Source: a phage. From it: a DNA stretch of 64,000 nt. Position 1 is the first letter of the stretch. Each line of letters begins with the position of its first letter. This document shows, one piece after another, positions 23,252 through 57,384 of the stretch. Below the pieces are notes generated by a model, which was given only the letters and a program-made list of their open reading frames with translations, was not told the DNA's origin and ran no database searches. The position numbers and the translations under genes were made by a program. Location of the stretch: the NCBI GenBank assembly GCA_032986305.1, contig GCA_032986305.1_3672.1. One strand, 5' to 3'.

Positions 23252-23662
23252 TTGGGGACTGTTGTGAAAAATAAACTGTTCAAAGTTACAATGAAAATTC
23301 GCGGAGCTTGGAGCGTAAAGCAAGGGCGTATCCCAGAGTTTGAGAAAGACTTCTACGTAGTCTCCACCTCTAAAGAGGCTGCATGCTGGCAGGCTGGATA
23401 TGCCTATGCAAGAACCTGGTACGAAGGATACCAGACTGGAGGCTATGACGGAGAAATTGTCAGCAAGGGTGTGGAAGAAATTAATGTGTTGACAAGTGAA
23501 AAAGTTTTTGTTATAGTGCATCCTGATTCCAGAGTGAAGCATTACTGGAATGCCAGAACAAAAACTTGGACACCGTTTGCAGATTCTGCTACACCACTTT
23601 TAAACCAAAAAGCTCTTGACTCTGCCCCGAGCTATGGGGTTGTTGAAGAAAAGCTAGACTGA
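23252..23662 (+). CDS. hypothetical protein (paralog of 25472..25867; start uncertain)
   Basis: Shares HP.S...YW...TK.WTP region with ORF 25472. Confidence 0.45.
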   Translation: MGTVVKNKLFKVTMKIRGAWSVKQGRIPEFEKDFYVVSTSKEAACWQAGYAYARTWYEGYQTGGYDGEIVSKGVEEINVLTSEKVFVIVHPDSRVKHYWNARTKTWTPFADSATPLLNQKALDSAPSYGVVEEKLD

Positions 23663-35514: not shown

Positions 35515-35567
35515 AATTTACTTTATTGATGGCCTTGGAGTCAAGGCCATCTAAAAATAAATTTTAC
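35515..35567. repeat. about 50-bp repeated intergenic element with 24-bp perfect palindrome GATGGCCTTGGAGTCAAGGCCATC (copy 1)
   Basis: Near-identical copies at 39235-39287 and 39827-39876. Confidence 0.6.
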
Positions 35568-35764
35568 AGGCCTACAATCTCTTTGATTCGTTTTACTGCT
35601 GCCTCAGCGCCTTGAGGGTAGAAATTATGATAACCAATCACGCGGGTAATACTGATCGCCGCTTGGTGGTCCTCGTAGTCGCCTTTGAATATTTCTTGAC
35701 CATCAACCAGCACAGCAATTTTTTCTTCTTTTTTGAAGTTAATAACGCGGATATTGTTGCTCAT
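35564..35764 (-). CDS. hypothetical protein
   Basis: SD AAAGGAGAAA. Confidence 0.4.
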   Translation of the reverse strand: MSNNIRVINFKKEEKIAVLVDGQEIFKGDYEDHQAAISITRVIGYHNFYPQGAEAAVKRIKEIVGL

Positions 35765-37778: not shown

Positions 37779-37799
37779 GATATTTTCTCCTGTTTTCTT

Positions 37800-37864
37800 T
37801 GTTAGTGGCGGGAAGTTTTCCCGCCTGTGTGTTTAATTATACTTATTGAGATTTACTTGTCAAC
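37800..37864 (-). promoter_or_regulatory. promoter (TTGACA-16-TATAAT) plus 5' UTR hairpin GGCGGGAA/TTCCCGCC cassette
   Basis: Minus-strand consensus hexamers at 37858-37863 and 37836-37841; palindrome 37807-37825. Confidence 0.55.
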
Positions 37865-38873: not shown

Positions 38874-38949
38874 GTGTACTTTCTCCTTTCATGGTGTTAA
38901 TAAATTATCTTTATAGATGGCCCTGCAACCAGGACCACCGAAAAAATAA

Positions 38950-39195
38950 CTATTTCACAATGCCTACAAAACAGATCCCGCCTTCACCTATGTAAGCAAT
39001 ATCGGTAACTTTATAATTTGTCAAGATCTGTTTATTTAGTTCATTAATAAAATCGGTCATTGCGTTGGTGTAGTTGTCTTCCATATCTAAGGCATAATCC
39101 CAGGCGTAAACCTTTTTACGTCCGAAGCCTTTTACCATGATACGGGCGCTTTTGGTGTTGGTGGGCGCATAATATTTTGTGATTAGTGCTGCCAT
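38950..39195 (-). CDS. hypothetical protein
   Basis: SD GAGGAG. Confidence 0.45.
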   Translation of the reverse strand: MAALITKYYAPTNTKSARIMVKGFGRKKVYAWDYALDMEDNYTNAMTDFINELNKQILTNYKVTDIAYIGEGGICFVGIVK

Positions 39196-39234
39196 GGTTT
39201 TAACTCCTCATTAGTTCAGTGTTAACAGTGTAAA

Positions 39235-39287
39235 GTTTACTTTATTGATGGCCCTGGAGTCAAGGCCATCTAAAAATAAATTTTACT
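39235..39287. repeat. repeated palindromic intergenic element (copy 2)
   Basis: gatggccctggagtcaaggccatc with one mismatch in stem. Confidence 0.6.
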
Positions 39288-39594
39288 CGTTTTCTTCCAG
39301 CTCTGTCTGCAATTCCTGGTATTCTTCATCGTCCTCAATATCCAGGCTGTCGATGTAGTCGCTAAATCCGCAGCGGTAAGCGATAGGATCTAACTCCTTG
39401 AGGATACGCGACGGAAGAAAAGAAATGTTTCCGATCATAATTTCGCCGTAGATCTCGTCTAGCCATTCGTCATAGTTTTCGTCGTACTTGTCCTCGTCGA
39501 TTTCAAAGTTATCGATCTTGTTCTCAAGGTCTGCGATCTGTTTTTTCAGCGCGGCGATCTGCATAGCTTTTTCTGCGGCGGTCATAGTAGTCAT
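39283..39594 (-). CDS. hypothetical acidic protein
   Basis: SD AAAAGGAGAAA; Asp/Glu-rich. Confidence 0.45.
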   Translation of the reverse strand: MTTMTAAEKAMQIAALKKQIADLENKIDNFEIDEDKYDENYDEWLDEIYGEIMIGNISFLPSRILKELDPIAYRCGFSDYIDSLDIEDDEEYQELQTELEENE

Positions 39595-39675
39595 GGTGTT
39601 TTCTCCTTTTGTGTGTTCTGGGAAGTTTTCCCGTTTACGTGTTTAAGTATACCGATTTGGGTTAGCTTGTCAATT
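39595..39675 (-). promoter_or_regulatory. promoter (TTGACA-16-TATACT) plus 5' UTR hairpin cassette
   Basis: Same architecture as 37800-37864. Confidence 0.5.
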
Positions 39676-39793: not shown

Positions 39794-39826
39794 CTTAAAG
39801 CCCCCTTTTCGCTTAGTTGAGACTAG

Positions 39827-39876
39827 TTTACTTTATTGATGGCCCTGGAGTCAAGGCCATCTAAAAATAAACTTAA
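39827..39876. repeat. repeated palindromic intergenic element (copy 3)
   Basis: Identical core to copy 2. Confidence 0.6.
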
Positions 39877-40277
39877 TAAGTTTTCAGTACTTTACCGTCC
39901 AACCTGTCAAGCTGGATCTCAATAGCTGCAGAAAACCTATTGTACACCACGTCGCCCATAGAATCCAACCAATCTATGACGTTATATACCTGCTCTTTAT
40001 TCTTACAGGTCCGGATCCGTTTCATGATGTAAGCCGGATCAATATTGGTACTCTCGTTGGTGTTCCCCTGTACCTGGTTTGCCGTATTAGTTACATCTTT
40101 AATGGCCTTTACCACCACCTGGAATGGCTTTAAGGTGCCTTTTGCGTTCATCTCACGCGCTTTTGCGGCGCGGTTGTTATATGTTACACAACGGCGGCAA
40201 ATATTGATCAAATGCATGTCAATAATTTTTTCATCGTTTGCCAACTCGTTCATGATGCGGCGTACGTTCTTATTCAT
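39873..40277 (-). CDS. hypothetical protein
   Basis: 134 aa; own promoter/hairpin cassette at 40278-40352. Confidence 0.45.
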   Translation of the reverse strand: MNKNVRRIMNELANDEKIIDMHLINICRRCVTYNNRAAKAREMNAKGTLKPFQVVVKAIKDVTNTANQVQGNTNESTNIDPAYIMKRIRTCKNKEQVYNVIDWLDSMGDVVYNRFSAAIEIQLDRLDGKVLKTY

Positions 40278-45360: not shown

Positions 45361-45777
45361 TCAACAGAAAACTTCAACAAACTCTTCCACAGTTTTAATG
45401 TCGTGGGAAAAAGGTTTACGGCTATAACGGGCAATAGCACTATCAACCACCGCCCGGTACTCCAAATCTTCAGAATATTTCATGAAGCATTGCAGCGTCT
45501 CTGGGCAGATAGCTAAATAGCTCCACCACCCTTCTTCAGATTGGTAGTCGAATCCCATACTTTCCAACCATGAAGCATATACTCCTGCACCCTCAAGCCA
45601 GTGAGTATTTTCATCCAGAAACTTGTTAATAGACATGTGAGCTTCTAAGCATTTATCCAGCTCTTTTCCGTTAACCAGCCACGCACTGACCGTGGCGCAT
45701 CCAAGGTCTACAGATTGAGTTGACAGGTTGTATTGGTCATAGTTCTCAGGTTTAACAATGATATCTTCTAATGTCAT
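45361..45777 (-). CDS. hypothetical protein
   Basis: SD AAGGAGA. Confidence 0.45.
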   Translation of the reverse strand: MTLEDIIVKPENYDQYNLSTQSVDLGCATVSAWLVNGKELDKCLEAHMSINKFLDENTHWLEGAGVYASWLESMGFDYQSEEGWWSYLAICPETLQCFMKYSEDLEYRAVVDSAIARYSRKPFSHDIKTVEEFVEVFC

Positions 45778-45792
45778 TTTTCAGATCTCCTT

Positions 45793-45824
45793 ATACAAAA
45801 ATGCCCCACCCTTTCGGGCAGGGC
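45793..45824 (-). terminator. rho-independent terminator (9-bp stem, GAAA loop), duplicated at 56862-56895
   Basis: GCCCTGCCC-GAAA-GGGTGGGGC then UUUUUGU on minus strand. Confidence 0.55.
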
Positions 45825-45839
45825 TATGTTAACTAATTG

Positions 45840-47066
45840 TTAAAAAGGGATGTCATCATCAAAGGAGTACTGTGCTGGATTCTGATCCATCGGGTCATCT
45901 TCCCCATCATTTACAGGAGGAGCGTCTACAGTGTTTTGCTGTGGAGCTGCTTCCTGTTTGGCAGCCTTAGGTTCTTGATGGTCAGTTGACCCAGCACCGT
46001 TCTTGATCCAATCGTACAACGGCTCAGCCAGATTAGTCAAGACATCTTTTGCTTCTGCAGTAATTGCCGCTGCAAAATCATCAACTTTCGTTTTCTTGTC
46101 AATACGGCGACAAGCGTTCAACACCGCATTACCGACACTGGCACCTACTTCATCTTCAGTTCGGTTGGTGGCTTGAGCATACTCTTTCTTAAGCTCAATG
46201 GTGACTACGTGCAGTGTTTTAGCCACGCCCAGTGGGTCGTCTACCTTAAACCCGCGATCCAGGATGATCTGCAACGCATTGATGCTATGCCCCGTTTCCA
46301 CACCGATAGGGTCGTAAGAGGATTTACGCTTGCCACCAGAGCCTTGAGTGCCGTTCTCTGCCTTAGGAGGATAGGCCTTGAAACCACTGATAATGTTTCC
46401 GGTGTCTTTGTCAACAATGGCTGCAACACGACCACCTACCACCAGGTCTTTAAGCTGCTCATCAGTTACAACCATAGCACCTTCGCCAATCTTGTGGTCA
46501 TTAACAGTAACCACGTTGCCAACAATCTGAGTCACATCACCATAGATGCGTAAAACGTCCTGATTGGCATTCTGCTGAGGTTTCTGCTTCTGGCCTTGTG
46601 ATTGTGCACCTTGTTGCTGTTTTTGCTGCTGAGTCGCTGCTGGAGCCTCTCCTGCACCCAGCTTGACCATCTTAGCCAGTGAGCCTTTGTAATAGGTCTT
46701 ACCGTTATGCTCGTTTGCCTTCAAAGGAATATTTACGATCCATCCCGGCGTTACGGTTTCCCACTTGTCATCAATTTTAACAGAGACAGAGTCTTGATGA
46801 CCAGGTTTAAGCAGCTTATCACCCATGCTGATCCAAACTTCTTCACCACCTTGAAGCAGGTTATCAGAGGAATCCAGTTCAGAAATCAGTAAAGAGATGG
46901 TGTGGCTGGATTCAATTTTCTTACCTTGCCACACAGTGGTTTTAATACCTGTTGTAGGATCAGCACCTTTGATAGGCTTGATGCTGACACGTTTAATCAT
47001 GCCGTGAGCCAGTAAAACAGTTTCACGCGGATTCATCGGGTTAGCGAATTGTTGAATAACGCTCAT
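45840..47066 (-). CDS. putative ssDNA-binding protein with C-terminal acidic tail ending DDDIPF
   Basis: C-terminus ...SFDDDIPF is the E. coli SSB tail motif; Q-rich linker. Confidence 0.45.
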   Translation of the reverse strand: MSVIQQFANPMNPRETVLLAHGMIKRVSIKPIKGADPTTGIKTTVWQGKKIESSHTISLLISELDSSDNLLQGGEEVWISMGDKLLKPGHQDSVSVKIDDKWETVTPGWIVNIPLKANEHNGKTYYKGSLAKMVKLGAGEAPAATQQQKQQQGAQSQGQKQKPQQNANQDVLRIYGDVTQIVGNVVTVNDHKIGEGAMVVTDEQLKDLVVGGRVAAIVDKDTGNIISGFKAYPPKAENGTQGSGGKRKSSYDPIGVETGHSINALQIILDRGFKVDDPLGVAKTLHVVTIELKKEYAQATNRTEDEVGASVGNAVLNACRRIDKKTKVDDFAAAITAEAKDVLTNLAEPLYDWIKNGAGSTDHQEPKAAKQEAAPQQNTVDAPPVNDGEDDPMDQNPAQYSFDDDIPF

Positions 47067-47431
47067 TATTTGTCTCCTTGTTCTTCGTTAGTGTTTGCCG
47101 TGTGTGCAAACCCTGCTTGAATTAATTTGTCCTGAACTTGAGCCAACAGCCCCATTGCAAAACTTGTGGTCCCAGAGAGGGCCATCAGCATATCTCGTTG
47201 TTGAGCTACCCAACCTAAGGCATAGTCCAAACGACGATATTTTTCTTCTTCACGCAGAGCTTGAAATAATTGTTCAGCCTCTGGTTGTTGTGTGAGCTCC
47301 TGAAGTCTTCCCATGAAAGAAGAAAGCACTAGTAGAAGAGACACTTGATCTTTACTTAACCCTAAGAAAAATTCTTGAGGTTGTTCTTGCTCGTTCATCG
47401 CAACCGACGCTTGATCGTTCATTTGTTCCAT
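47066..47431 (-). CDS. hypothetical protein
   Basis: 121 aa, coupled to downstream gene. Confidence 0.4.
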   Translation of the reverse strand: MEQMNDQASVAMNEQEQPQEFFLGLSKDQVSLLLVLSSFMGRLQELTQQPEAEQLFQALREEEKYRRLDYALGWVAQQRDMLMALSGTTSFAMGLLAQVQDKLIQAGFAHTANTNEEQGDK

Positions 47432-47514
47432 TATGGAATCTCCGATTTTATTTGAACAACATAGAAGGAGACACTATTTTAGCATCCCCTTCTGCAAATT
47501 ACAATAGGTATTTG

Positions 47515-47760
47515 TTAGCCAATCACTTCGAAAGTTCCCCAATTCCCGTCCAGCAGGCAGGTGATCGGATCCCCATCGTCGTCAAAGATTTCAAAGTTTT
47601 CAGCATCCAGGATGTGGCCCTCGAACACAATACTTTCGTCGCCACCACCAGAAATAACAGCGTATTCCTTACCTTCAGTCAAGTTTTGACACCCTTTGCC
47701 ACCAAAACCTACTTCAACACAACGTACTTTCTGTCCTGCGCGAGCAACTACTTCAGTCAT
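47515..47760 (-). CDS. hypothetical protein
   Basis: 81 aa. Confidence 0.4.
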   Translation of the reverse strand: MTEVVARAGQKVRCVEVGFGGKGCQNLTEGKEYAVISGGGDESIVFEGHILDAENFEIFDDDGDPITCLLDGNWGTFEVIG

Positions 47761-47777
47761 CTTAAGGTCTCCTGATA

Positions 47778-48098
47778 TTAATCGTCAAGTTCAAAATAGA
47801 TTTTAACAGCTTCATCAAAGATTGGAATCCCAATGTTGTTGATAAGCTGCCAAACTACCATATCTTTACCTGGATCTGGGAGAATGTCAACCTTTCTCCA
47901 TGCGCTGTATATCCAGTTCGGACCACCTTCTGCACTAACTGGCAGATTTTCACCAGCCTCCTGCAGATACTTATACAGCAAAAGATATTCTGGATACTCT
48001 AGAACACTGTCCTCTGTAGTATATAGCAGTTCACGGTATACTTTTAAGAACCCTGCTGGGGTAATGTTTTCAGTCTTCATTTGCCGCTTCTCCTGCAT
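47778..48098 (-). CDS. hypothetical protein
   Basis: 106 aa. Confidence 0.4.
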   Translation of the reverse strand: MQEKRQMKTENITPAGFLKVYRELLYTTEDSVLEYPEYLLLYKYLQEAGENLPVSAEGGPNWIYSAWRKVDILPDPGKDMVVWQLINNIGIPIFDEAVKIYFELDD

Positions 48099-48462
48099 TC
48101 ATCAGGTCTGCCATAGCGTCACCTACGAAGAGAACAACCACATCGTTGACAGCGTCAGCATCATCTTTATTGACGTTGCTGAATTTAGGACACACCGCAA
48201 TGATCATATAGACACCGTTACCAACCTGAACTGTCCGTGTGGTGCACATCATGGCGGTATTTGTGCCTTCTTTGAAGGCGAAGCCTTGAAGACGCTCCTC
48301 TAAAGTGTTACCGGTAGATTTCAGAAGCGCCAGCTCGTCCAAGGCATAGATGATATCTCCGGAAGTTAGTGTTGCCTTGCCATCAGACACCATAATAACT
48401 CCATCAGCACCGTCAAGCTTAGAGGCTTCAAAGATATCAATATCCCAAATATTTTTCATCAC
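48070..48462 (-). CDS. hypothetical protein
   Basis: 130 aa. Confidence 0.4.
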   Translation of the reverse strand: MMKNIWDIDIFEASKLDGADGVIMVSDGKATLTSGDIIYALDELALLKSTGNTLEERLQGFAFKEGTNTAMMCTTRTVQVGNGVYMIIAVCPKFSNVNKDDADAVNDVVVLFVGDAMADLMNAGEAANED

Positions 48463-48779
48463 GCTTCCTCGTCGTCTAAAGAGTTGAAGATTTCACCGAA
48501 GTATTCTAAGACTTCTAGCTCCCGTGTGGTGCAGAAAACACAGTCACCGTTGTCATCCTCGATAACGGCCTCTTTACCCAGCACATCTACTTCAAGTTTA
48601 TCGTTCAACAGGACAGCCCCTGTGTAAACTTTGTCGGCTGTGCAGTCCCGAAAAGCAGAGTCTTTCTCCAGATAGTCTGGCTTAACCTTGGCTTTAATTC
48701 GTTGGTATTGTTTGGTCATTGCTGTGGTCCCCTTTCGTTTTGATAGGGCCATTATATTAGGCCCCATCACTGTTGTCAA
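48459..48779 (-). CDS. hypothetical protein (tandem paralog of 48783..49037)
   Basis: Shared motifs DCT...Y and DDNGDCVFCT / DDEGDSVWCT. Confidence 0.4.
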   Translation of the reverse strand: MTTVMGPNIMALSKRKGTTAMTKQYQRIKAKVKPDYLEKDSAFRDCTADKVYTGAVLLNDKLEVDVLGKEAVIEDDNGDCVFCTTRELEVLEYFGEIFNSLDDEEA

Positions 48780-48782
48780 GTA

Positions 48783-49037
48783 TTAATGTTCAGGTTTTAC
48801 AAAAACTACTTCATTAACAGTGCACCAGACAGAGTCTCCTTCATCATCTTTAAAGGTAAGGCACTGTGCTGAGTTTTCCAGCTCATCAATCTCTTCTTGT
48901 GATAAAGGGGCCCCTTCTTCCAAAAGGGCTTTTACCAAAGGGTTCTCACAAAACTCTGCTTCATAAATAGTGCCAAGTGTGCAATCTTTAAAAGCTCGGT
49001 CGTTTGCAACGCATTCTGGTTTCAACATGATTTTCAT
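48783..49037 (-). CDS. hypothetical protein (tandem paralog)
   Basis: See 48459..48779. Confidence 0.4.
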   Translation of the reverse strand: MKIMLKPECVANDRAFKDCTLGTIYEAEFCENPLVKALLEEGAPLSQEEIDELENSAQCLTFKDDEGDSVWCTVNEVVFVKPEH

Positions 49038-49113
49038 CTTGGAGGTCTCCTTAATTATTTAACAATCAATACTCTGTTTGTGGGGAGTATCTTACATCTA
49101 ACCTTACTTCTTG

Positions 49114-49512
49114 TCAACGACTATTTTCAATCATCCACCAAGGATCAAGGTAGGTTTGTTGACTTTTTGCCCACTGGCAAACATCTTCGTACATCTGAAC
49201 TTCGTTTTCAGTCAGTTCACGAATAGGCTCATCTATACCCTCATTTTTGTGGTAATCCCAGTCGGCATCGATCTCCCACAACCACGACTTGTTGTCACCA
49301 CGCTTACGCACACAGAAGTCACCGGGACGGCCTGCCAATGCATTTAAGAACTCGTTCTCCGCTCGCTCCTGAAGAATACTAAGGAGCAAAACGTTGGAGC
49401 ATGACCGTAAAATATGCTTCAGCTCACAATCATCAATCTCAACTTCAATACGTTGTTTGACTGTGTGGGTACCTTTTACTAACATCCTACCTCCTCTAAA
49501 CGAACTCTGCAA
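49114..49512 (-). CDS. hypothetical protein
   Basis: 132 aa. Confidence 0.4.
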   Translation of the reverse strand: MQSSFRGGRMLVKGTHTVKQRIEVEIDDCELKHILRSCSNVLLLSILQERAENEFLNALAGRPGDFCVRKRGDNKSWLWEIDADWDYHKNEGIDEPIRELTENEVQMYEDVCQWAKSQQTYLDPWWMIENSR

Positions 49513-49690
49513 GAGTTGTGTTGTTCACTGCACCGCAGTAAATGGAGTATCCCAGCCCATTAGAGTGCAGAAACCACGGCGTGCCGAAATTATCTTTCAC
49601 GTAGACATCGCCGTTGTTTGTAAAGGGCCAATATTCTTCACCAAGGGTAAAATACCTATTCATATCTTCAGCAAGATACTTTACTTTCAT
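49496..49690 (-). CDS. hypothetical protein
   Basis: 64 aa. Confidence 0.35.
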   Translation of the reverse strand: MKVKYLAEDMNRYFTLGEEYWPFTNNGDVYVKDNFGTPWFLHSNGLGYSIYCGAVNNTTLAEFV

Positions 49691-49914
49691 AGGTCCTCTT
49701 CAACAACTACAAACTTGGCAAGCAAAGTGGTTCCGTAGATATGATACTCACCGTTTGCCAGGTGAGAGATATACCAGGCAACCCCTTCCTCGTCTTTAAT
49801 CATTTTGTTTGCACGAGCTTTATCGTAATAAACCTCGTAGGTCTTTCCTTCTTTAAAGAAGGACAGGTCTGTCATCTTTTCTTCTACAAAAGTAGCTTTA
49901 ACCAAAGTTGTCAT
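49687..49914 (-). CDS. hypothetical protein
   Basis: 75 aa. Confidence 0.4.
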   Translation of the reverse strand: MTTLVKATFVEEKMTDLSFFKEGKTYEVYYDKARANKMIKDEEGVAWYISHLANGEYHIYGTTLLAKFVVVEEDL

Positions 49915-50285
49915 TGATCGGTCTCCTTCTTGTTAAGTCTGAATACTGCAATAATAGCATTCCCAAGGTGCAGTGTCAAATCATTTCCAAGATACCACAA
50001 CATTCCACGGTCATCTTTAATGAAAGGGTAACAATCTGGTGCCTTCCAGACATTGTACACTTTCCCAACCTGAAAGAAATCAGGCCCTGTTGGGATTTTG
50101 GTGCCAGGCCACACTTGAGATACCTGAACACACTCCACCTGCATAATAACAGGAATGGTCATGGATGTAAATGTTTTTGTTGGCTCTACTACCATAAAAG
50201 TCTCCTCTTTGCTCAACAACACTTCCATGTGTTGATAGTTTACATTAGTGACAATCACCCCAGTTACGACCACACAAGTATTCAC
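49911..50285 (-). CDS. hypothetical protein
   Basis: 124 aa. Confidence 0.4.
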   Translation of the reverse strand: MNTCVVVTGVIVTNVNYQHMEVLLSKEETFMVVEPTKTFTSMTIPVIMQVECVQVSQVWPGTKIPTGPDFFQVGKVYNVWKAPDCYPFIKDDRGMLWYLGNDLTLHLGNAIIAVFRLNKKETDQ

Positions 50286-50601
50286 CTGTGATCTGGAACG
50301 GGACTCCCATCATTTTAGAAGCTTGCCAGAAGCAATGCACCACCATTTCACCCACAGGGCTCCAGATAAGTTCAAGCTTTCCGTCATCGTTCAGGATAGG
50401 ATCGTACACCGTGTTTCCGTCTCTGTCAACCACCTCGTTTCCGTTTTCATCCTTGCGTGCCTTTTTGTACTTATGACCGTCGAACACATGAAGTTTGGCT
50501 TCCTGCTCTGCCTTAAATGCTTCCAGTTCTTCAATTGTGTCGAAGGTGTACACAGTCTTATACTTAGGTGTGTCAGGGACCTGAAGTTGGTACTCATCCA
50601 A
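50245..50601 (-). CDS. hypothetical protein
   Basis: 118 aa. Confidence 0.4.
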   Translation of the reverse strand: MDEYQLQVPDTPKYKTVYTFDTIEELEAFKAEQEAKLHVFDGHKYKKARKDENGNEVVDRDGNTVYDPILNDDGKLELIWSPVGEMVVHCFWQASKMMGVPFQITGEYLCGRNWGDCH

Positions 50602-50868
50602 TAGTTCAGGTAGGTCGTTAAGCTACCCCGCACCATTACGTGCATAGCCATACGTTTTCACGTAGGATCGGACCATCTCATATTCCTATGATAAGCAACC
50701 ACAGGAATCCTCCCATTTCGACCGCACTTGCTGGTCTACTTCCTTTCGGAATGGCCTCTGAGCGTTCGCTCTTTTGAGCGCTTCGTTGCGGATTACCTTG
50801 CCATAAGGTTTAGGCTTCCCGCAGTTAAAGAGGTTATTCGACATAGATTACTCTATGAAGCCACAATG

Positions 50869-53298
50869 TTATTTATGGTAATAAATAATACGACGAACAC
50901 CTTCATCGTACCACCCACGCTTCACCATTTGGTGGTGCATGAGTATCCCAACTAAGTCACACAGCGATGCACCACCATTCTGTTGGTATGCATTAAGTAA
51001 AGAGTGTTTAGATCGGGTCCAGATGGCATGACCATCAAAAGAGTAGATAAACTTCTTACCCGTTGCTTCCCAGAATTTCTCCAGATCCTCTTTACGCCCC
51101 TTAAGACCAGGGTTGGCATCCCAAAGTGCATCGATTACCCTTTGTCCCAACTCTGGAGAGATGTCCAGCATATCTGCAACTTTATCTTTTTGTGCCCCGT
51201 ACATAACCCCATACGTGATAGGTTTACCGTCGTTACGGGACACCTCTCTGCCTGCTACTTTTGTATATGCCTCAGCATTGTTTTGGTGTGCGTCTCCGTT
51301 ACTTACAACATCGTAATACAGGCCGTTGTCGAACTCAAAGGCACCCCAAGCCCCGATAAGCTGCTCTAAGTTGGACCCGTCGATACCGATCTCAAAGTAT
51401 CCTGGAGGAACACCCCACAAGCTACGCATCTCTTTACCCATAACCACTTTAGGAGAGGGTTTAGGCATGTTTGCACAAATACTGTGTTTCTGTCTGGAAG
51501 TGTTTGTTAATCCAGAGCTTTTAGCAGGAAGCTTATGGTCAATCTTCAAGCGTGGGTGATTAAGAAGACCAGTATCAACCTTATCCTCCTTGATCGGATC
51601 AAGGACCGATCTGCGGTTTCGCAATGATAACCACAAGACGATATCTTTAGCCATCTCTCCGTTCAATTTTTCAAGATTCGGACATAGGTGTCCAAACGTA
51701 TCTTTCAGTTGCGGAGAAGTAATAAGTGCCCTAGCTTTTCTACGTATTTTCCTGAATACTTCCTTTTTAATCCTTTCGGAGTTAGGAAAGCTTCGGAACT
51801 TGTGCACAGTTGTCTGGAACTTAGCATCAGTTTTGTTCCAGAAGTTGATAATTAGGTCACAATACTCTGACTCCAAAAGCTCGTCCATATATGCATATAC
51901 TCGTGCATCAACATCTGCATCAGGTAAAGCTTTCTTCTTGCTGTCTTTAGTTACATCCTTAGTTCTCCACATTGTCGGAAGCCAGCCAGCACTGATCAGG
52001 TATCGCTTAATGTCGTCCTGGTTGCTGATTTTCATAGGTATCTTGCAGTCCGGCATTCGCTTCTGCTGTAGATCACTTATTGCCTGATCCATCAACTCTT
52101 TAGGTAAAGGGTGTGGTGTGGAAGTGCCCTTAATATAGCCTCTCAAGAAATCAGCCATCTTATCGGGGTCTTTGCATCCCATCTCTTCACACCATTTTAT
52201 CCCCATCTTGCTGACATCTCCTGTAGAGGTAAATGCTCTCTTAGGCGGGGCTTTGAACTCTAAAGCGCTCATGTCTACAGGATATCCAAGCTTATCTTTT
52301 AACCATTTCCAACCATTATTAGAGATTGTCCCGTCTTGGTTAAACGGCTTTTCAGGGAACTTGGGCCGCTGAGACATTGACAGCTCTTTTAAAGGCAGTT
52401 GTGGTTCAACACGATCAGCGATTTCTTTCATCCACGCATCGCAACGGTCACGTAAAGCAATAGCTCCATCTATGTCGAAATATACGCCCTGACGGGCCTG
52501 CAGCTCCATCAGGAAGTGCTGCAGCATACCTCGGCGCAATGCGTTCTTCCAGGTGATCTTCTTGAACCCTTTTGGCTTCTCTTTGGCAGGATCGTACATA
52601 AAGTTCTGCATGTCAGATTTGCCGTAGAATACACCTTTTGATTCCGCTACCAGCTCTTTCCAGAGCAACTCCTGGATGATAACGTCCTCGAATACACGAT
52701 CCACATACTTCCACAACGGAAGATCGCGCCAGTCATCAATTTGAACTTTCTGGTTACCAAGGGCGTAGCCCCATGCCATAAGGCCGTGAGGACCAACAGG
52801 CTGCATTTTCTTAGTAACCGGGTTGAATACAGCGTCCGGACAACCTTTTGGTAAAGGGCGATCAGGCCACAAGATTCGGCTCATCGCCAACGTATCAAAC
52901 AGGTTAACCTGGTGGTCGTTGATAGTCCCCATACATTTAGGATCACGGAACATATCAAAATGAATACCGGATAATCTCTCCATCAGCATAAAGTCATAAC
53001 TATAGCAGTTATGGCAGTTCAAAGCTGTTGGTGACCAGTCGGAATTGCCTGTAAGCCAACCTTCCAACTCCGAAAAATCTGCTATGCGAACTTCAAAATC
53101 TTTATAAAGAGCTTTCTTTGCCAGAATAAAGTTCTTAGCCTTCTCTATATCCTCCTCGGAGTAGTGTGTGCGGTCATTTAGAGGGAGGAACAGCATAAAA
53201 CGGTTCTTATTCAGCTCTTTAAACAGGCCGCAGTGATAATAAAGATCTGGGTCTTCCAAAAGCCCGGAGGCCTCAAAATCGAAGCTATACATGCTCAT
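50869..53298 (-). CDS. family A DNA polymerase (T7 gp5-like) with 3'-5' exonuclease domain
   Basis: Exo I FDFEASGL; motif A GIDGSNLEQL (cf. T7 DASGLELR); motif B RNDGKPITYGVMYG; SD AAGGAG. Confidence 0.75.
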   Translation of the reverse strand: MSMYSFDFEASGLLEDPDLYYHCGLFKELNKNRFMLFLPLNDRTHYSEEDIEKAKNFILAKKALYKDFEVRIADFSELEGWLTGNSDWSPTALNCHNCYSYDFMLMERLSGIHFDMFRDPKCMGTINDHQVNLFDTLAMSRILWPDRPLPKGCPDAVFNPVTKKMQPVGPHGLMAWGYALGNQKVQIDDWRDLPLWKYVDRVFEDVIIQELLWKELVAESKGVFYGKSDMQNFMYDPAKEKPKGFKKITWKNALRRGMLQHFLMELQARQGVYFDIDGAIALRDRCDAWMKEIADRVEPQLPLKELSMSQRPKFPEKPFNQDGTISNNGWKWLKDKLGYPVDMSALEFKAPPKRAFTSTGDVSKMGIKWCEEMGCKDPDKMADFLRGYIKGTSTPHPLPKELMDQAISDLQQKRMPDCKIPMKISNQDDIKRYLISAGWLPTMWRTKDVTKDSKKKALPDADVDARVYAYMDELLESEYCDLIINFWNKTDAKFQTTVHKFRSFPNSERIKKEVFRKIRRKARALITSPQLKDTFGHLCPNLEKLNGEMAKDIVLWLSLRNRRSVLDPIKEDKVDTGLLNHPRLKIDHKLPAKSSGLTNTSRQKHSICANMPKPSPKVVMGKEMRSLWGVPPGYFEIGIDGSNLEQLIGAWGAFEFDNGLYYDVVSNGDAHQNNAEAYTKVAGREVSRNDGKPITYGVMYGAQKDKVADMLDISPELGQRVIDALWDANPGLKGRKEDLEKFWEATGKKFIYSFDGHAIWTRSKHSLLNAYQQNGGASLCDLVGILMHHQMVKRGWYDEGVRRIIYYHK

Positions 53299-53356
53299 AA
53301 AGTGTTCTCCTTAAAGGGGAGGCGGTTGTACTACCCCTCCCACTCTTGGTTAAACA

Positions 53357-55435
53357 TTAAAAAGGCGTTTCATCATCCTCAAAACCAGGGACAGGGTCAG
53401 AGGACGGATCATCGTACTGGAGGTCTTCCTGCGTGTCAACAGGCTTAACAGTAGGAGTTACAACCTTATCAGCCACAACCTTGCCCATAGGTGTTTCTAC
53501 AACTGCATGCTCCTGATCCTCAAACATAGCCTGAGGTCTCCAAACAACCTCCCCACCTTCTCCATCTGTAAACATTTGCATTTCTTTGTCCCAGTACCAA
53601 TTACTGGCATCATGGAACTTACCTGTATGTGGGTCCATAACCAAAGTGTCTGCAATACCCAATGTTTTTGCTGGGCGGTTTTTAAGACCTACTAAACGGA
53701 CACGCCCACGAGAACGATCCACCATTTCTTCGGCCTCAACACCTATGACTACCCAACTCAACTGTTCAAGCCCAGCCGATCCTCGCAAATTCTCTTTTCG
53801 CACAGGATACCAGAAAGGTAATGGGTTACCATCCTTGTCCTTAGGAGGCACAATCTCTGTACGTTTGAGGTGAGCGATCACCAAGATAAACACGTTAAAC
53901 TGCTTACAAAACGCAGCCAGCTGAGTCATAGCCATGTCCAGTTCTTTTCGCTCATCTTTAACATTAAGCCCTGAAATTACCATAGACAGGTGATCCAGCA
54001 CAATATAGCGACAATGATACAGGCAGACCATTTGCTTAAGCTTGGTAATCAACTCGTCCACTGGAATAGACCCGAAATGTTTGAACACTTTGATTTTTCC
54101 AGCTTTTGCCCATGATTGGTGAATCTCTGCGTGTTCTTGATCAGTTAAAAACTGGCTAGGATCTTCAACAAACTCTTTAACATCAAACCCTAGCTGGTTT
54201 GCATACAAGGAGTTAATTGCTTCCTCTGGGTCCTCCTCAAGATGGATCATGCATAGACGATCATCCTCTTCATAGTCATCGGCCTTCGGGCATGTCGGGT
54301 CCATCAAGTATCTTGCAATACAATGTTCCAGTTTTTTAGCTACAGTTGTTTTACCGCCCCCTGATGGCCCTGTAAGCATTACGAGTGTCCCTTTGTGCAA
54401 GCCTTTTAGCATTTTTTGCAGTTTTGGAAACTCTGCGCTGATATCTACCCCGTTGGAAGTCTTTTTCCGCAAAGATTCGATAGAGAAGTCTTCTAAATCC
54501 GACACAGCATCCGGCACATACTTAACAGGATGCCGGAACATGTTTACAATATCTTCCAGCTTTTTAGCCTTCAGCATGTCACGGATATCTTTTACACCAT
54601 CAGGGTCGTTTACCTCGCCAGGATATTCCACGTGGTAAACGTTGTCAGCCATCAAAAATGCTGCGATATTATGTGTGGCTTCAACACCTTTGATAACGTG
54701 TTTTTGCTTCTCTACCTCGTTAGCTGCATCGTTGTCCATTGCAAGGACCACTGTTCCGTAGCTACGGATAAATTTCTCATTGTTTGCAAAAGTGTCTACT
54801 GCGTTTGCACATCCACAGTTAATTCCAACAAAAGGCAGGCAGGGTTTTCCTGCCAGATCACCCCCGTTGATAACTGCATCGATCCCGTCCTGAACCTCTT
54901 TAGCCCACTGTTTCACCTTTGCCGGGGCTTTAGCGTTGGTGAGAATCCCTTTTACTTGTATCTGATATGCAGCCTGCCATGCTGCAATAACATCACCTTC
55001 CCCCTCACAAACGTTAATCTGCTTACGGTTGTTGGAAGATGCACACAGCTTTTGACCAAACATCTGGGAGTTAGCCTTTACGATGCCTACTACAGACCAG
55101 TGTCCTTTTTGCTCTTTCGGCTTAGACCAATCACGCTTTTTGAAACCGGACAGATTCCCGTATCGGTCGTAATATGGGAAATATGTTGCAGTAACTGTCA
55201 CACCGTCTTCTTGGGATAATGCTGATCGCACACCAAAATATTGTGCAGCCATCAGACCGATATTCTGTTGTGGAACAGGGACAATTTTAGTATTTTCTAA
55301 AACAGTCTCTACAGTTTCAACCTCTTTTTCATCACGATAGTCTCGTTTCATACTGCCCCCACTTTTGTATCTTGTTGCAACCGGGTTAGGTTCTCCATAG
55401 CGGCTATATGCAGAGGATATAAACTTATTCCCCAT
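53357..55435 (-). CDS. primase-helicase (TOPRIM primase plus DnaB-like helicase, T7 gp4-like)
   Basis: TOPRIM CEGEGD and AMDNDAAN; Walker A LTGPSGGGKTT; C-terminus ...FEDDETPF; SD GAGGAG before ATG 55435. Confidence 0.8.
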   Translation of the reverse strand: MGNKFISSAYSRYGEPNPVATRYKSGGSMKRDYRDEKEVETVETVLENTKIVPVPQQNIGLMAAQYFGVRSALSQEDGVTVTATYFPYYDRYGNLSGFKKRDWSKPKEQKGHWSVVGIVKANSQMFGQKLCASSNNRKQINVCEGEGDVIAAWQAAYQIQVKGILTNAKAPAKVKQWAKEVQDGIDAVINGGDLAGKPCLPFVGINCGCANAVDTFANNEKFIRSYGTVVLAMDNDAANEVEKQKHVIKGVEATHNIAAFLMADNVYHVEYPGEVNDPDGVKDIRDMLKAKKLEDIVNMFRHPVKYVPDAVSDLEDFSIESLRKKTSNGVDISAEFPKLQKMLKGLHKGTLVMLTGPSGGGKTTVAKKLEHCIARYLMDPTCPKADDYEEDDRLCMIHLEEDPEEAINSLYANQLGFDVKEFVEDPSQFLTDQEHAEIHQSWAKAGKIKVFKHFGSIPVDELITKLKQMVCLYHCRYIVLDHLSMVISGLNVKDERKELDMAMTQLAAFCKQFNVFILVIAHLKRTEIVPPKDKDGNPLPFWYPVRKENLRGSAGLEQLSWVVIGVEAEEMVDRSRGRVRLVGLKNRPAKTLGIADTLVMDPHTGKFHDASNWYWDKEMQMFTDGEGGEVVWRPQAMFEDQEHAVVETPMGKVVADKVVTPTVKPVDTQEDLQYDDPSSDPVPGFEDDETPF

Positions 55436-56096
55436 CTTTAAACTCCTCAATCTCTTTCATCACTCTATCTCTTACAGCTTTTGCTTCTTCTAAAGTATTG
55501 TAAGTGCCATAGCTCTTTCTCTTTTTGCCGCTTTGCACTCTAACTCTCCACCTTCCAGAGCTCGGCACATAGAACACCCCTGTTACACCGCTAGTGTTTC
55601 TAACATCCAAATCTTGCGGGACGAATTTTCCCTTCTCCCATAACTTTCTGCATGCAATTGCATCTTCTTTTGTCTTAAAACACCCTAAGTATATGTCTCC
55701 AACAGATGCAATCCATCTTTTTATACCTCTAGGGTAGCGTACACCTCGACACCCTGAGGTATTGTTAATGCTCAGTTTGTCACTGTAGATCATGTCTCGT
55801 GCATTATCGCCCTGTGTACCTAGGACTAAGTTCTCTACCCTATCATCGCCTGCTATGTCGTTCTTGTGCCGCACAACAAGTCCTTCTGGTATCTCCCCGT
55901 AATGCATCTCCCAAACTATTCTATGCCTACGAACACTCCCAACACCTGACACATATATCACTCTATAGCCATTTTTATCTGTACCTGTGGCCTCCTCACC
56001 TGCGTAATGTATAACCCTGCCCCTTCCGGCTTTTGCAGTGTACGCCCAGAACAGTTTGCCGTCACTGTAGGTGAAATACTTGCTCCAGTCAACCAT
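55425..56096 (-). CDS. HNH homing endonuclease with two AP2 DNA-binding domains (free-standing)
   Basis: HNH_3 motif HRIVWEMHYGEIP...RHKN...DDRVENL; AP2-like SGCRGVRY... and SGVTGVFY... repeats. Confidence 0.75.
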   Translation of the reverse strand: MVDWSKYFTYSDGKLFWAYTAKAGRGRVIHYAGEEATGTDKNGYRVIYVSGVGSVRRHRIVWEMHYGEIPEGLVVRHKNDIAGDDRVENLVLGTQGDNARDMIYSDKLSINNTSGCRGVRYPRGIKRWIASVGDIYLGCFKTKEDAIACRKLWEKGKFVPQDLDVRNTSGVTGVFYVPSSGRWRVRVQSGKKRKSYGTYNTLEEAKAVRDRVMKEIEEFKDGE

Positions 56097-56850
56097 TGGC
56101 CCTTCTCCTTACTACAGGCTCGTTTGCTAAGAATACAGCTTTTGCCCAACCACGTGGTGTGAGGCTTCGAATCATCTTTGTTCTTGCACTCTTTCCACCC
56201 AGCTTGGCGTGTTGCATGGAATACCCGCTAACCGCGTCAACTATTTGCGGGACAGGTTTTGTGGCCGGGATTATAAATCCATTACCTATCCAGCCGCAAG
56301 TTATTTTTGGATAGGCATCGCGTGGAGCTATAAATTCAGGAAACCAAGGGTTTACATCATCCTCCGGTAAATACCCGCCATAGTCAGAAGGATGAAAACG
56401 GTAATCAGGTTTGCGCCACAGTGTGGACATAACACCCACAGGATTTTCTACATGCCACGGGCAATCGTAAATCTCTCCCAGCTCTTCAGCAACCCGAGCA
56501 TCCTTTACAGCATTAATTTGGATCATAGGGTCCTTATCCAGCTTTTTCTTAAAATGTGCAGCACCTGATACCGCTAAATGCGTGCACGGAGGAAATGCAA
56601 GAATAAAGTCTGGAGCTGGGTACATGCAAAAAGTTTCCTGAGGGAACCATGGGTCAATCCAATAATCCACATAGTGAATGTTGGGATGATCGGTTATCAC
56701 CTCTGCATAACTGCCGTGGTCAGCACCTTCTGCGTTAAAGCACAGGCACAGATATCCAGCTTTTGCCCAGTCAATGACTGCACCGCCAGATCCGTCAAAT
56801 AGACTCCACACAACACCTTTGTGGTAGTGTTCTTTATAGATAAATTTCAA
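56089..56850 (-). CDS. putative DNA methyltransferase (cytosine-5-like motifs); start probably TTG 56850
   Basis: Motif I-like SLFDGSGG, FPPC, ENPVG in correct order; track start at 56880 lies inside terminator hairpin. Confidence 0.4.
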   Translation of the reverse strand: MKFIYKEHYHKGVVWSLFDGSGGAVIDWAKAGYLCLCFNAEGADHGSYAEVITDHPNIHYVDYWIDPWFPQETFCMYPAPDFILAFPPCTHLAVSGAAHFKKKLDKDPMIQINAVKDARVAEELGEIYDCPWHVENPVGVMSTLWRKPDYRFHPSDYGGYLPEDDVNPWFPEFIAPRDAYPKITCGWIGNGFIIPATKPVPQIVDAVSGYSMQHAKLGGKSARTKMIRSLTPRGWAKAVFLANEPVVRRRANG

Positions 56851-56861
56851 TTTGCTGTCTC

Positions 56862-56895
56862 CTAATGCAAAAAGCCCCACCCTTTCGGGCAGGGC
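56862..56895 (-). terminator. rho-independent terminator (second copy of 22-bp hairpin)
   Basis: Identical GCCCCACCCTTTCGGGCAGGGC to 45803-45824. Confidence 0.55.
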
Positions 56896-56901
56896 CTAGT
56901 G

Positions 56902-57384
56902 TTAAACCCGGATACCTATTGTATACTCGGTGGATACCAATGTCAAATCTAAATTTAAAATTTCTTGCATCTCATAGTATGCGTCCAGGGTGAGATACAT
57001 TTCCCCATCCTTTTCTACATACTTGTCCAAGTGCTTGAGGCATTTCGGATAACTATCAAGTGCAGCTTTCAGGCACTCAAACTCTGTGCTGTTGATGAAT
57101 CCTTCCATCTTGGCTACCCGTTCTGGGGTAACGATAGCACTGTAGTGAGATTTAGCTTCCTGAATGCAATGGGTCCAAGCATCAACTTTCTCTTCGAAAA
57201 GTCCGAAGAATTTCTTTTTGGTGAGCTTCAGATTCTTTAAGTGCTTAAGCACTCGGTTGCCGATCACAGCCACATCACGAAACTTAAGGATCACTTTGTC
57301 GATATCCTCGCGGCCTATTTTCACAAAGCAAGCCTCACACATTTCAGGAGCTGCGTAACCTACTTTCCACATAAAATCTGACAT
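56902..57384 (-). CDS. hypothetical protein
   Basis: 160 aa. Confidence 0.45.
   Translation of the reverse strand: MSDFMWKVGYAAPEMCEACFVKIGREDIDKVILKFRDVAVIGNRVLKHLKNLKLTKKKFFGLFEEKVDAWTHCIQEAKSHYSAIVTPERVAKMEGFINSTEFECLKAALDSYPKCLKHLDKYVEKDGEMYLTLDAYYEMQEILNLDLTLVSTEYTIGIRV

Follow-up and report, generated by a model that had tools for sequence, protein, structure and literature searches.

The window, i.e. the whole 64,000-nt stretch of DNA analysed, belongs to a Vequintavirus (rV5-like) phage that is 99% identical to Escherichia phage Murica. On its plus strand, the 22-mer GCCCCACCCTTTCGGGCAGGGC occurs exactly twice over the whole window. The exact match at both sites bore out the initial annotation, which had described one 22-bp element used twice (copies A and B, Table 1). 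All of the genes flanking both copies are on the minus strand. Copy A follows the stop codon TAA (45842-45840) of a gene for a 408-aa protein, which is labelled as a putative SSB in the record of phage JLBYU08, and precedes a gene for a 138-aa protein with its ATG at 45777. Copy B follows the stop codon TAA (56904-56902) of the 160-aa ORF and precedes the methyltransferase gene. The order of stop codon, hairpin, U-run, and SD was mapped at both sites, in agreement with the earlier placing of each copy between a gene stop and the next SD. The distance from the stop codon to the hairpin start is 15 nt in A and 6 nt in B. The roughly 11 kb between the copies hold the methyltransferase gene and, downstream of it, genes for the HNH endonuclease, the primase/helicase, and a DNA polymerase with a group I intron, together with small ORFs and the putative SSB gene. 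The description of this region as a replication block was therefore appropriate.

Table 1. Features at the two hairpin sites of the window.
Feature	Position	Strand	Remark
Hairpin copy A (rV5 t213 equivalent)	45803..45824	-	9-bp stem, 2 G.U
Copy A tail, A + UUUUU + G	45796..45802	-	U-run 45797-45801
Copy A 39-nt shared cassette, hairpin + A + TTTTTGTATAAGGAGA	45786..45824	-	SD AGGAG at 45787-45791
Gene upstream of copy A, 408-aa protein	45840..47066	-	rV5 ORF214 family, phrog_4477
Gene downstream of copy A, 138-aa protein	45361..45777	-	rV5 ORF212 family, phrog_8967
Hairpin copy B (rV5 t232 equivalent), same 22 nt	56874..56895	-	stem extendable to 10-11 bp, 56872-56897
Copy B U-run, UUUUU	56869..56873	-	directly after stem
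Copy B 38-nt shared cassette, hairpin + TTTTTGCATTAGGAGA	56858..56895	-	SD AGGAG at 56859-56863
Gene upstream of copy B, 160-aa protein	56902..57384	-	rV5 ORF232 family, phrog_12900
Gene downstream of copy B, Dcm-like C5 cytosine DNA methyltransferase	56089..56850	-	TTG start at 56850
Sigma70-type promoter (rV5 P231), TTGACA-17-TACAAT	56918..56946	-	11/12 consensus

The minus-strand RNA, GCCCUGCCC-GAAA-GGGUGGGGC, folds into a 9-bp stem closed by a GAAA loop with a dG of -17.6 kcal/mol (z = -3.6 against shuffled sequences). The stem is composed of seven G-C pairs and two adjacent G.U pairs. The dG of the plus-strand RNA of the 22-mer is only -11.4 and its fold contains two internal mismatches, and the G.U pairs work in the minus (coding) sense only. 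The stem is directly followed by UUUUU in copy B and by A and UUUUU in copy A, both tracts being short (5 U). The computed fold agrees with the earlier description of a 9-bp stem with G-U pairs, a GAAA tetraloop, and a U-run. Copies A and B are the top two minus-strand terminator sites between 40 and 60 kb, and a d'Aubenton-Carafa-type score was only +5.9 for A against +31 for B. This low score, the shortness of the U-runs, and the A between stem and U-run in copy A speak against a terminator. No Rfam 15 family came near its gathering score at either site. The best match was snoR38 at site A (21.5 bits, E 0.29, gathering score 45), and that at site B reached 15.9 bits (E about 1). The GC-rich hairpin, the U-run, the intergenic position after a stop codon, and the G.U pairs restricted to the minus sense support the prediction that both elements are rho-independent terminators on the coding strand, co-oriented with the flanking genes. 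A literature search for 3'-end mapping, Term-seq, or a transcriptome of any rV5-like Vequintavirus found none.

Both hairpins are already known as predicted terminators. Kropinski et al. 2013 (Virol J 10:76, Table S4, Additional file 4) listed the predicted rho-independent terminators t213 and t232 of rV5, called by ARNold/MFOLD. As listed there, their sequences are identical to the window copies (GCCCTGCCCGAAAGGGTGGGGC followed by ATTTTT or TTTTT). They lie on the same strand, after ORF213/214 and after ORF232 as in the window, and P231 is located upstream of t232 as at copy B. One difference is the endonuclease VII gene (ORF213), which precedes t213 in rV5 and is absent in the window, Murica, and FV3. 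This gene is also found directly upstream of hairpin A in ECML-10, 10C2, EmilHeitz, and V18. In the available parts of Kropinski et al. 2013, no remark was found on t213 and t232 being identical. Copy A is annotated as a terminator in the GenBank records of HdK5 and EdH4, and copy B in that of Murica. The observation is real, ordinary, and already known; new here are the extent of the repeated cassette, its copy number, the pairing-preserving variation, the leakiness, and the spacing between P231 and copy B.

The identity of the two copies continues for 16 nt past the hairpin (TTTTTGYATWAGGAGA), except for one extra A in copy A. The repeat is a 38-39-nt cassette composed of the hairpin, the U-run, and the SD. 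The common tail TTTTTGNATNAGGAGA has no other occurrence in the window, and the similarity between the downstream flanks of A and B was greater than in all of 5000 shuffles. The likeness of the upstream flanks (TTTAACA) was not significant (p about 0.1). Further copies were then searched for, as the initial annotation had advised. With up to 3 mismatches allowed, no third copy of the 22-mer was found in the window or in the complete Murica genome, which gives two per genome. Dinucleotide-shuffled controls contained no match (0/100). In IMG/VR, the exact 22-mer was found in only two Vequintavirus contigs, twice in each, and protein-anchored searches returned the same two contigs only. In 596 Gb of scanned bacterial genomes there was one exact match, in Lichenibacterium, which is at chance level, and none in E. 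coli. Considering this single match and the two copies per Murica genome, an origin from the host or a mobile element was rejected. A degenerate pattern preserving the structure matched 29 unrelated contigs in IMG/VR carrying generic GCCCC.CCC-GAAA hairpins with unrelated flanks, and these do not form a family.

Nineteen of about 118 Vequintavirus genomes were read for conservation. Copy B was invariant in all of the 16 genomes read at this site, and 112 of 118 records carry its 34-nt cassette with 100% identity. FV3 has both copies unchanged at an overall identity of only about 91%. Around copy B, only 5 of 135 columns are variable, in contrast with about 15-28% in the neighbouring coding DNA. 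Across 14 genomes, the 3'-terminal ~80 nt of the 160-aa ORF hardly vary, and with hairpin B they make up a nearly invariant block of 135 nt. Copy A showed four types of substitution (C-G to U.G, G.U to G-C, U.G to U-A, and G.U to A-U), all of which keep a standard pair and none of which is in the loop, although the sample is small and all four are transitions, a class favoured anyway. The change in Murica keeps the pairing in the minus-sense RNA only. Since all four types preserve minus-sense pairing, the structure rather than the exact sequence appears to be selected.

The initial annotation had proposed duplication or selection for a specific terminator or processing site to explain the exact reuse. 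The first proposal is supported, since the repeat as a whole is a 38-39-nt cassette unique in the window, and the copies probably arose by duplication. Selection for the exact terminator sequence was not supported by the copy A variants. A processing site is a weaker proposal than duplication; the stem is too short for RNase III. Frequent gene conversion between the copies was rejected, because A-specific flank differences are found in every genome read, and it is further contradicted by lineage-restricted variants that persist in copy A only. The hairpin pair was found only in the genus Vequintavirus. In SSBI34 the genes are arranged in another order, the methyltransferase gene has no hairpin in front of it, and there is no related 22-mer. 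A different terminator follows the gene for a distant 408-aa orthologue in SalP219, and none was found after the orthologue in K54_rec2 and EspYZU14. Positional conservation outside the genus could not be shown from these genomes.

The pairing-preserving variation would fit any function of an RNA structure. The hairpins might act post-transcriptionally only, as a barrier against 3'-exonucleases after endonucleolytic cleavage or as an RNase E or RNase III site. Read-through is needed for the genes further downstream, and an AU-rich single strand (UUUUUGCAUUA) beside a stem-loop is a typical RNase E context. However, RNase III needs about 20 bp or more of (interrupted) double-stranded RNA, far above the 9-11-bp stem, and no longer helix appeared in folds of 50-75 nt. 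The U-run is conserved at both sites as a part of the duplicated cassette and would be superfluous for a pure stability hairpin. In addition, terminator finders call both sites, as listed for rV5. A purely post-transcriptional role is therefore improbable.

Site B, and only site B, has a promoter closely followed by the terminator. P231 sits within the 3' end of the 160-aa gene, with 21 nt separating the end of its -10 element from hairpin B. Transcription is predicted to start about 14 nt ahead of the hairpin, so that P231 transcripts would meet it at about +15 to +45. The window contains 19 promoter matches of this quality, all on the local coding strand, compared with about 2 in shuffled sequences. 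Other strong promoters of the window also have a stable hairpin within about 10 nt downstream, e.g. at 37863 and 34112. No promoter of 9/12 or better was found within 180 nt upstream of hairpin A. From hairpin A to the ATG of the 138-aa gene, and from hairpin B through the primase/helicase gene, no sigma70 match reached 10/12. The stretch from B to A contains no further strong terminator on the minus strand, which makes A the first one downstream of B. With no promoter between either hairpin and the next gene, both terminators must be leaky, and termination at both would have to be partial.

For a simple terminator, it is unusual to have a strong and conserved promoter 21 nt ahead of it, as B does. 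Hairpin B could mainly be a promoter-proximal regulatory element of the P231 transcript, with A as the matching 3' end of the same unit. It would be either an attenuator overridden by a phage factor through antitermination, as in lambda PR'-tR'/Q, with most P231 transcripts ending as an RNA of about 45 nt, or a stem-loop in the 5' leader that stabilises the mRNA of the replication genes. The 11/12 sigma70 match, annotated in the rV5 and ECML-10 entries as well, the nearly invariant block, the short distance from the predicted start, the hairpins close to other strong promoters, and the position of A downstream of B agree with such an element. On the other hand, no antiterminator fold competing with hairpin B was found in folds of the P231 leader, and the attenuator would call for a dedicated Q-like or N-like antiterminator protein and its loading site. 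A single-stranded 5' end of 14 nt would not protect the leader against RNase E. Moreover, copy A is the same element without a promoter upstream, and the function shared by both copies is therefore that of a terminator part. The regulatory reading is unlikely on this evidence. In its attenuator form, which we regard as distinctly unlikely, most P231 transcripts would stop after about 45 nt, and read-through depending on the phage or host would dose or time the methyltransferase, primase/helicase, and polymerase. The read-through RNA would then extend about 11 kb to hairpin A and carry the same stem-loop near both of its ends.

The best explanation, which we hold with good confidence, is a duplicated cassette providing partial rho-independent termination at the edges of the replication block. 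We infer that an intergenic cassette of about 39 nt was duplicated before the genus Vequintavirus diversified. Both copies would end a part of the minus-strand transcripts of the host sigma70 RNA polymerase, and transcription would step down at both edges of the ~11-kb block. The ORF232-like message and the probably abundant message of the SSB-like 408-aa gene, each upstream of a hairpin, may gain a stable 3' stem-loop. At site B, P231 would supplement the transcription entering the replication genes.

T7 T-phi, between genes 10 and 11, is a leaky intra-operon phage terminator. The window hairpins resemble T-phi and canonical E. coli-type terminators in the GC-rich stem, the stable tetraloop, the 3' U-run, a probably abundant upstream product, and the need for read-through. 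However, their U-run is short (5 U) and is separated from the stem by an A in copy A. The polymerase is also different, T-phi acting on that of T7 and the window hairpins, by assumption, on the host sigma70 enzyme.

The PeSL cassettes (promoter-early stem-loops) of T4-type phages are also short repeated intergenic cassettes, having a stem-loop terminator or attenuator and an SD at the 3' end (Arbiol 2010, PMC2839356; Comeau 2014, PMC4122927). At site B only, the likeness extends to a near-consensus sigma70 promoter preceded by an AT-rich region. In contrast to PeSLs, the window has two copies only, and P231 lies at B outside the sequence shared with A, which has no promoter. The stem-loop is 21 nt downstream of the -10 element, whereas in PeSLs it lies over the promoter hexamers or between them. 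The copies border a conserved replication core and not ORFan-rich hyperplastic regions with many copies and indels; one indel, the endonuclease VII gene, abuts A. Repeated promoter/stem-loop cassettes are known to mediate shuffling in T4-type phages, two direct repeats bracket the replication block here, and the endonuclease VII gene is inserted beside hairpin A in some relatives. These points would fit a function at the DNA level, such as a protein-binding palindrome, a PeSL-like recombination or module-boundary site, or a homing-endonuclease target. However, the palindrome is imperfect, with 2 of 9 positions mismatched in DNA that become G.U pairs in one RNA sense, and the Murica variant keeps the RNA pairing only. 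Recombination between the two copies would remove essential replication genes, and no rearrangement between them was seen in the genomes examined. A DNA-level function is very improbable.

The importance of partial termination at the two hairpins goes little beyond annotation. The hairpins would mark the transcriptional edges of a replication-gene block in Vequintavirus, a genus whose members are widely isolated for use against E. coli O157 in biocontrol and therapy, and the duplicated terminator and RBS cassette is a small example of the reuse of regulatory parts by a phage. The conserved promoter 21 nt before B implies a deliberately leaky terminator or a regulated attenuator ahead of essential replication genes.

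A terminator after the tRNA/rnaC region of T4, AGCCCCGACCGAAAGGTTGGGGCTTTTTGG, is identical to the window element at 25 of 28 nt, sharing the GCCCC..CC stem, the GAAA loop, the G.U pair, and the TTTTTG tail. It differs at three stem positions and has unrelated flanks, and the match has an E-value of about 0.1. The likeness most likely reflects convergence on good terminator design and not homology.

The 22-mer GCCCCACCCTTTCGGGCAGGGC (plus strand) occurred exactly twice in the window, as copies A and B. No further site with three or fewer mismatches was found there, and 100 shuffled sequences gave no such match. The genes around both copies all lie on the minus strand. The minus-sense RNA, GCCCUGCCC-GAAA-GGGUGGGGC, forms a stem of 9 bp, including two G.U pairs next to each other, capped by a GAAA tetraloop (dG -17.6 kcal/mol, z = -3.6), and the plus-sense RNA carries two C/A mismatches with a dG of only -11.4. 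From the matches, the fold and the layouts listed in the table, the initial annotation of an identical hairpin with a U-run, used twice between a gene stop and the next SD, was accurate. The anatomy is that of a predicted intrinsic terminator for the host polymerase, and both copies scored positive (A +5.9, B +31) on a d'Aubenton-Carafa-type score. The two copies are t213 (A) and t232 (B) of phage rV5. The rV5 genome paper (Kropinski et al. 2013, Virol J 10:76) tabulates, in Additional file 4, the rho-independent terminators identified by ARNold and MFOLD, among them t213 at 121343..121370 (minus strand, GCCCTGCCCGAAAGGGTGGGGCATTTTT, -22.3 kcal/mol) and t232 at 132395..132422 (minus strand, GGCCCTGCCCGAAAGGGTGGGGCTTTTT, -22.3). 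GenBank records annotate a terminator at copy A in HdK5 and EdH4 and at copy B in Murica. The repeated hairpin is real and was rightly interpreted, as a predicted terminator; it is also ordinary, and both the literature and database annotation already record it.

Coordinates of the hairpin sites and of other elements in the window
Feature	Coordinates	Strand	Detail
Hairpin copy A	45803-45824		t213 equivalent
Stop of 408-aa ORF, upstream of A	45842-45840	minus	TAA
AGGAG downstream of A	45791-45787	minus	follows A+U5
Start of 138-aa ORF after A	45777	minus	ATG
Hairpin copy B	56874-56895		t232 equivalent
Stop of 160-aa ORF, upstream of B	56904-56902	minus	TAA
AGGAG downstream of B	56863-56859	minus	follows U5
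Start codon after B	56850	minus	TTG
P231, sigma70 promoter	56946-56918	minus	TTGACA-17-TACAAT, 11/12; inside 3' end of ORF232-like gene (160 aa)
135-nt block around B	56858-56990	minus	nearly invariant
Group I intron at DNA polymerase gene	50649-50884	minus	Rfam RF00028, 64.7 bits
HNH + AP2 homing endonuclease ORF	55425-56096	minus	between primase/helicase and methyltransferase genes
~61-nt repeat, four copies	35515-35575, 38903-38963, 39234-39294, 39825-39885		early region
Promoter-hairpin repeat, two copies	37798-37863, 39608-39673
Similar promoter-then-hairpin arrangement	34112-34084

The shared identity runs beyond the hairpin, which is followed by A and TTTTTGTATAAGGAGA in copy A and by TTTTTGCATTAGGAGA in copy B. 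The tail pattern TTTTTGNATNAGGAGA occurs in the window only at these two sites, and the likeness of the downstream flanks exceeded all 5000 shuffles. These observations indicate that the repeated unit is a putative 38-39-nt 'terminator + RBS' cassette; the upstream flanks showed no significant likeness (p about 0.1, shuffle test). Duplication, already suggested from the exact reuse and borne out by the shared cassette and flanks, is the parsimonious origin of the pair, because independent hairpins would not agree over 22 nt including both wobble-pair positions. The whole-genome search proposed for further copies returned these two only in the complete Murica genome. In IMG/VR, the 22-mer was present only in two Vequintavirus contigs, twice in each, and 596 Gb of bacterial genomes gave a single match, at chance level. 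The pair was not found outside the genus Vequintavirus: in SSBI34 the genes are ordered differently and no related hairpin is present, and among distant orthologues of the 408-aa gene, that of SalP219 is followed by a different terminator and the others by none.

Escherichia phage Murica matches the region at 99.3% identity, and about 117 other Vequintavirus (rV5-like) genomes match it at 91-99%. Copy B did not vary in the 16 genomes read at both sites, and 112 of 118 records carry its 34-nt cassette at 100% identity. Both copies are exact even in FV3, whose overall identity is only about 91%. Around copy B, only 5 of 135 columns (spanning the final ~80 nt of the ORF upstream, hairpin, SD and first codons) varied among 14 genomes, against about 15-28% of columns in the flanking coding DNA. 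Copy A is less strictly kept (94 of 116 records match its 38-nt cassette at 99% identity or more). Its substitutions are C9 to U in Murica (C-G to U.G), U17 to C in A112b and C9 (G.U to G-C), G18 to A in 10C2 (U.G to U-A; 366V inferred from identity only) and G6 to A in ECP26, ECP2303 and D# (G.U to A-U); HdK5 has one extra, unpaired C in the 5' arm. All four substitution types leave standard pairing intact in the minus-sense RNA and spare the loop. Of the 66 possible single substitutions, just 11 would retain pairing, so we calculated the chance of four out of four as between roughly 0.001 and 0.01, according to the transition bias assumed. Selection thus appears to target pairing, not the precise sequence, and wobbles as such would not be required. 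The proposed selection for a specific terminator sequence is not supported by these variants, which change the sequence yet keep pairing. The variants confined to copy A and the A-specific flank differences in every genome read speak against ongoing gene conversion between the copies.

The ~11-kb interval between the copies holds genes for a Dcm-like C5 methyltransferase, an HNH-AP2 homing endonuclease, a primase/helicase and a DNA polymerase split by a group I intron; it also has some 15 small ORFs and the 408-aa gene (putative SSB in the annotation of one relative). The placement of the hairpins in a replication block is therefore upheld. rV5-like phages carry many near-consensus sigma70 promoters; the window has 19 matches of at least 11/12, every one on the local coding strand, compared with about 2 in shuffles. 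Promoter matches of at least 10/12 are absent from the stretch that runs from hairpin B through the primase/helicase gene and from the gap that separates hairpin A and the 138-aa gene, nor is there another strong minus-strand terminator between the two hairpins. Termination at the two predicted terminators cannot be complete, and we read both as putative leaky terminators or attenuators because no such promoter match lies between either hairpin and the next gene and no other strong terminator intervenes. They would lower transcription at both borders of the replication block, and the messages upstream would end in a protective 3' stem-loop. The logic is comparable to that of T7 T-phi.

Promoter P231 is placed at the equivalent position by the table in Additional file 4 and is also annotated in the rV5 and ECML-10 records. 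As the sole unusual feature, its -10 ends 21 nt before hairpin B, so its transcripts have a predicted start about 14 nt ahead of the hairpin and would reach the terminator at about +15 to +45. P231 lies within the nearly invariant block (14 genomes), with an AT-rich stretch upstream. A GGTATCC-N15-GGTATCC direct repeat surrounds the -10; the block or this repeat could be an operator or attenuator. No alternative fold competing with hairpin B was found. The arrangement is consistent with a leaky terminator that an internal promoter supplements. That hairpin B instead serves P231 as a promoter-proximal attenuator or the source of a short RNA of ~45 nt seems quite improbable. In HdK5 (L001 ~23400-23460), a 1-nt insertion in the -10 region (TATAACAAT) frameshifts the ORF232 homologue, so that the annotated CDS runs through hairpin B; the insertion could reflect a sequencing error or be genuine variation.

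At the site of the group I intron, relatives' records show a split (joined) DNA polymerase gene with an inserted homing endonuclease. The HNH + AP2 ORF is present in EmilHeitz and absent from rV5, FV3 and Murica. In some Vequintavirus genomes (rV5 ORF213, L013 841-1464; same site in L016, L018 and L021), a putative homing endonuclease gene (endonuclease VII) is inserted immediately upstream of hairpin A; it is absent in the window, Murica and FV3. About 20 nt separate the end of the insert from hairpin A, with a similar, not identical, spacer brought in by the insert, and V18 (L023) shares the insert-type flank.

Rfam gave no match at the hairpin sites, and the stem is too short for RNase III. 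The nearest described class of repeated regulatory cassettes is the promoter-early stem-loop (PeSL) cassettes of T4-type phages (Arbiol 2010, PMC2839356; Comeau 2014, PMC4122927). The pair lacks the defining PeSL features: the cassette is present only twice instead of in many copies, copy A lacks a promoter, and the location is the conserved core, unlike PeSLs. A phage T4 terminator after the tRNA/rnaC region (AGCCCCGACCGAAAGGTTGGGGCTTTTTGG, L055 1500-1530) matches the cassette at 25 of 28 nt with unrelated flanks, probably by convergent design. The four-copy ~61-nt repeat, a stem-loop (GATGGCC..GGCCATC) with a -35-like TTGACT in the loop (minus strand), resembles PeSL cassettes. The two-copy repeat carries sigma70 promoters (one 12/12, one 11/12), each with a hairpin about 10-13 nt after the -10 and no U-run (GGCGGGAAAACTTCCCGCC in the 37798 copy; the weaker GGGAAAACTTCCC in the other), and a similar arrangement was seen at one further site.
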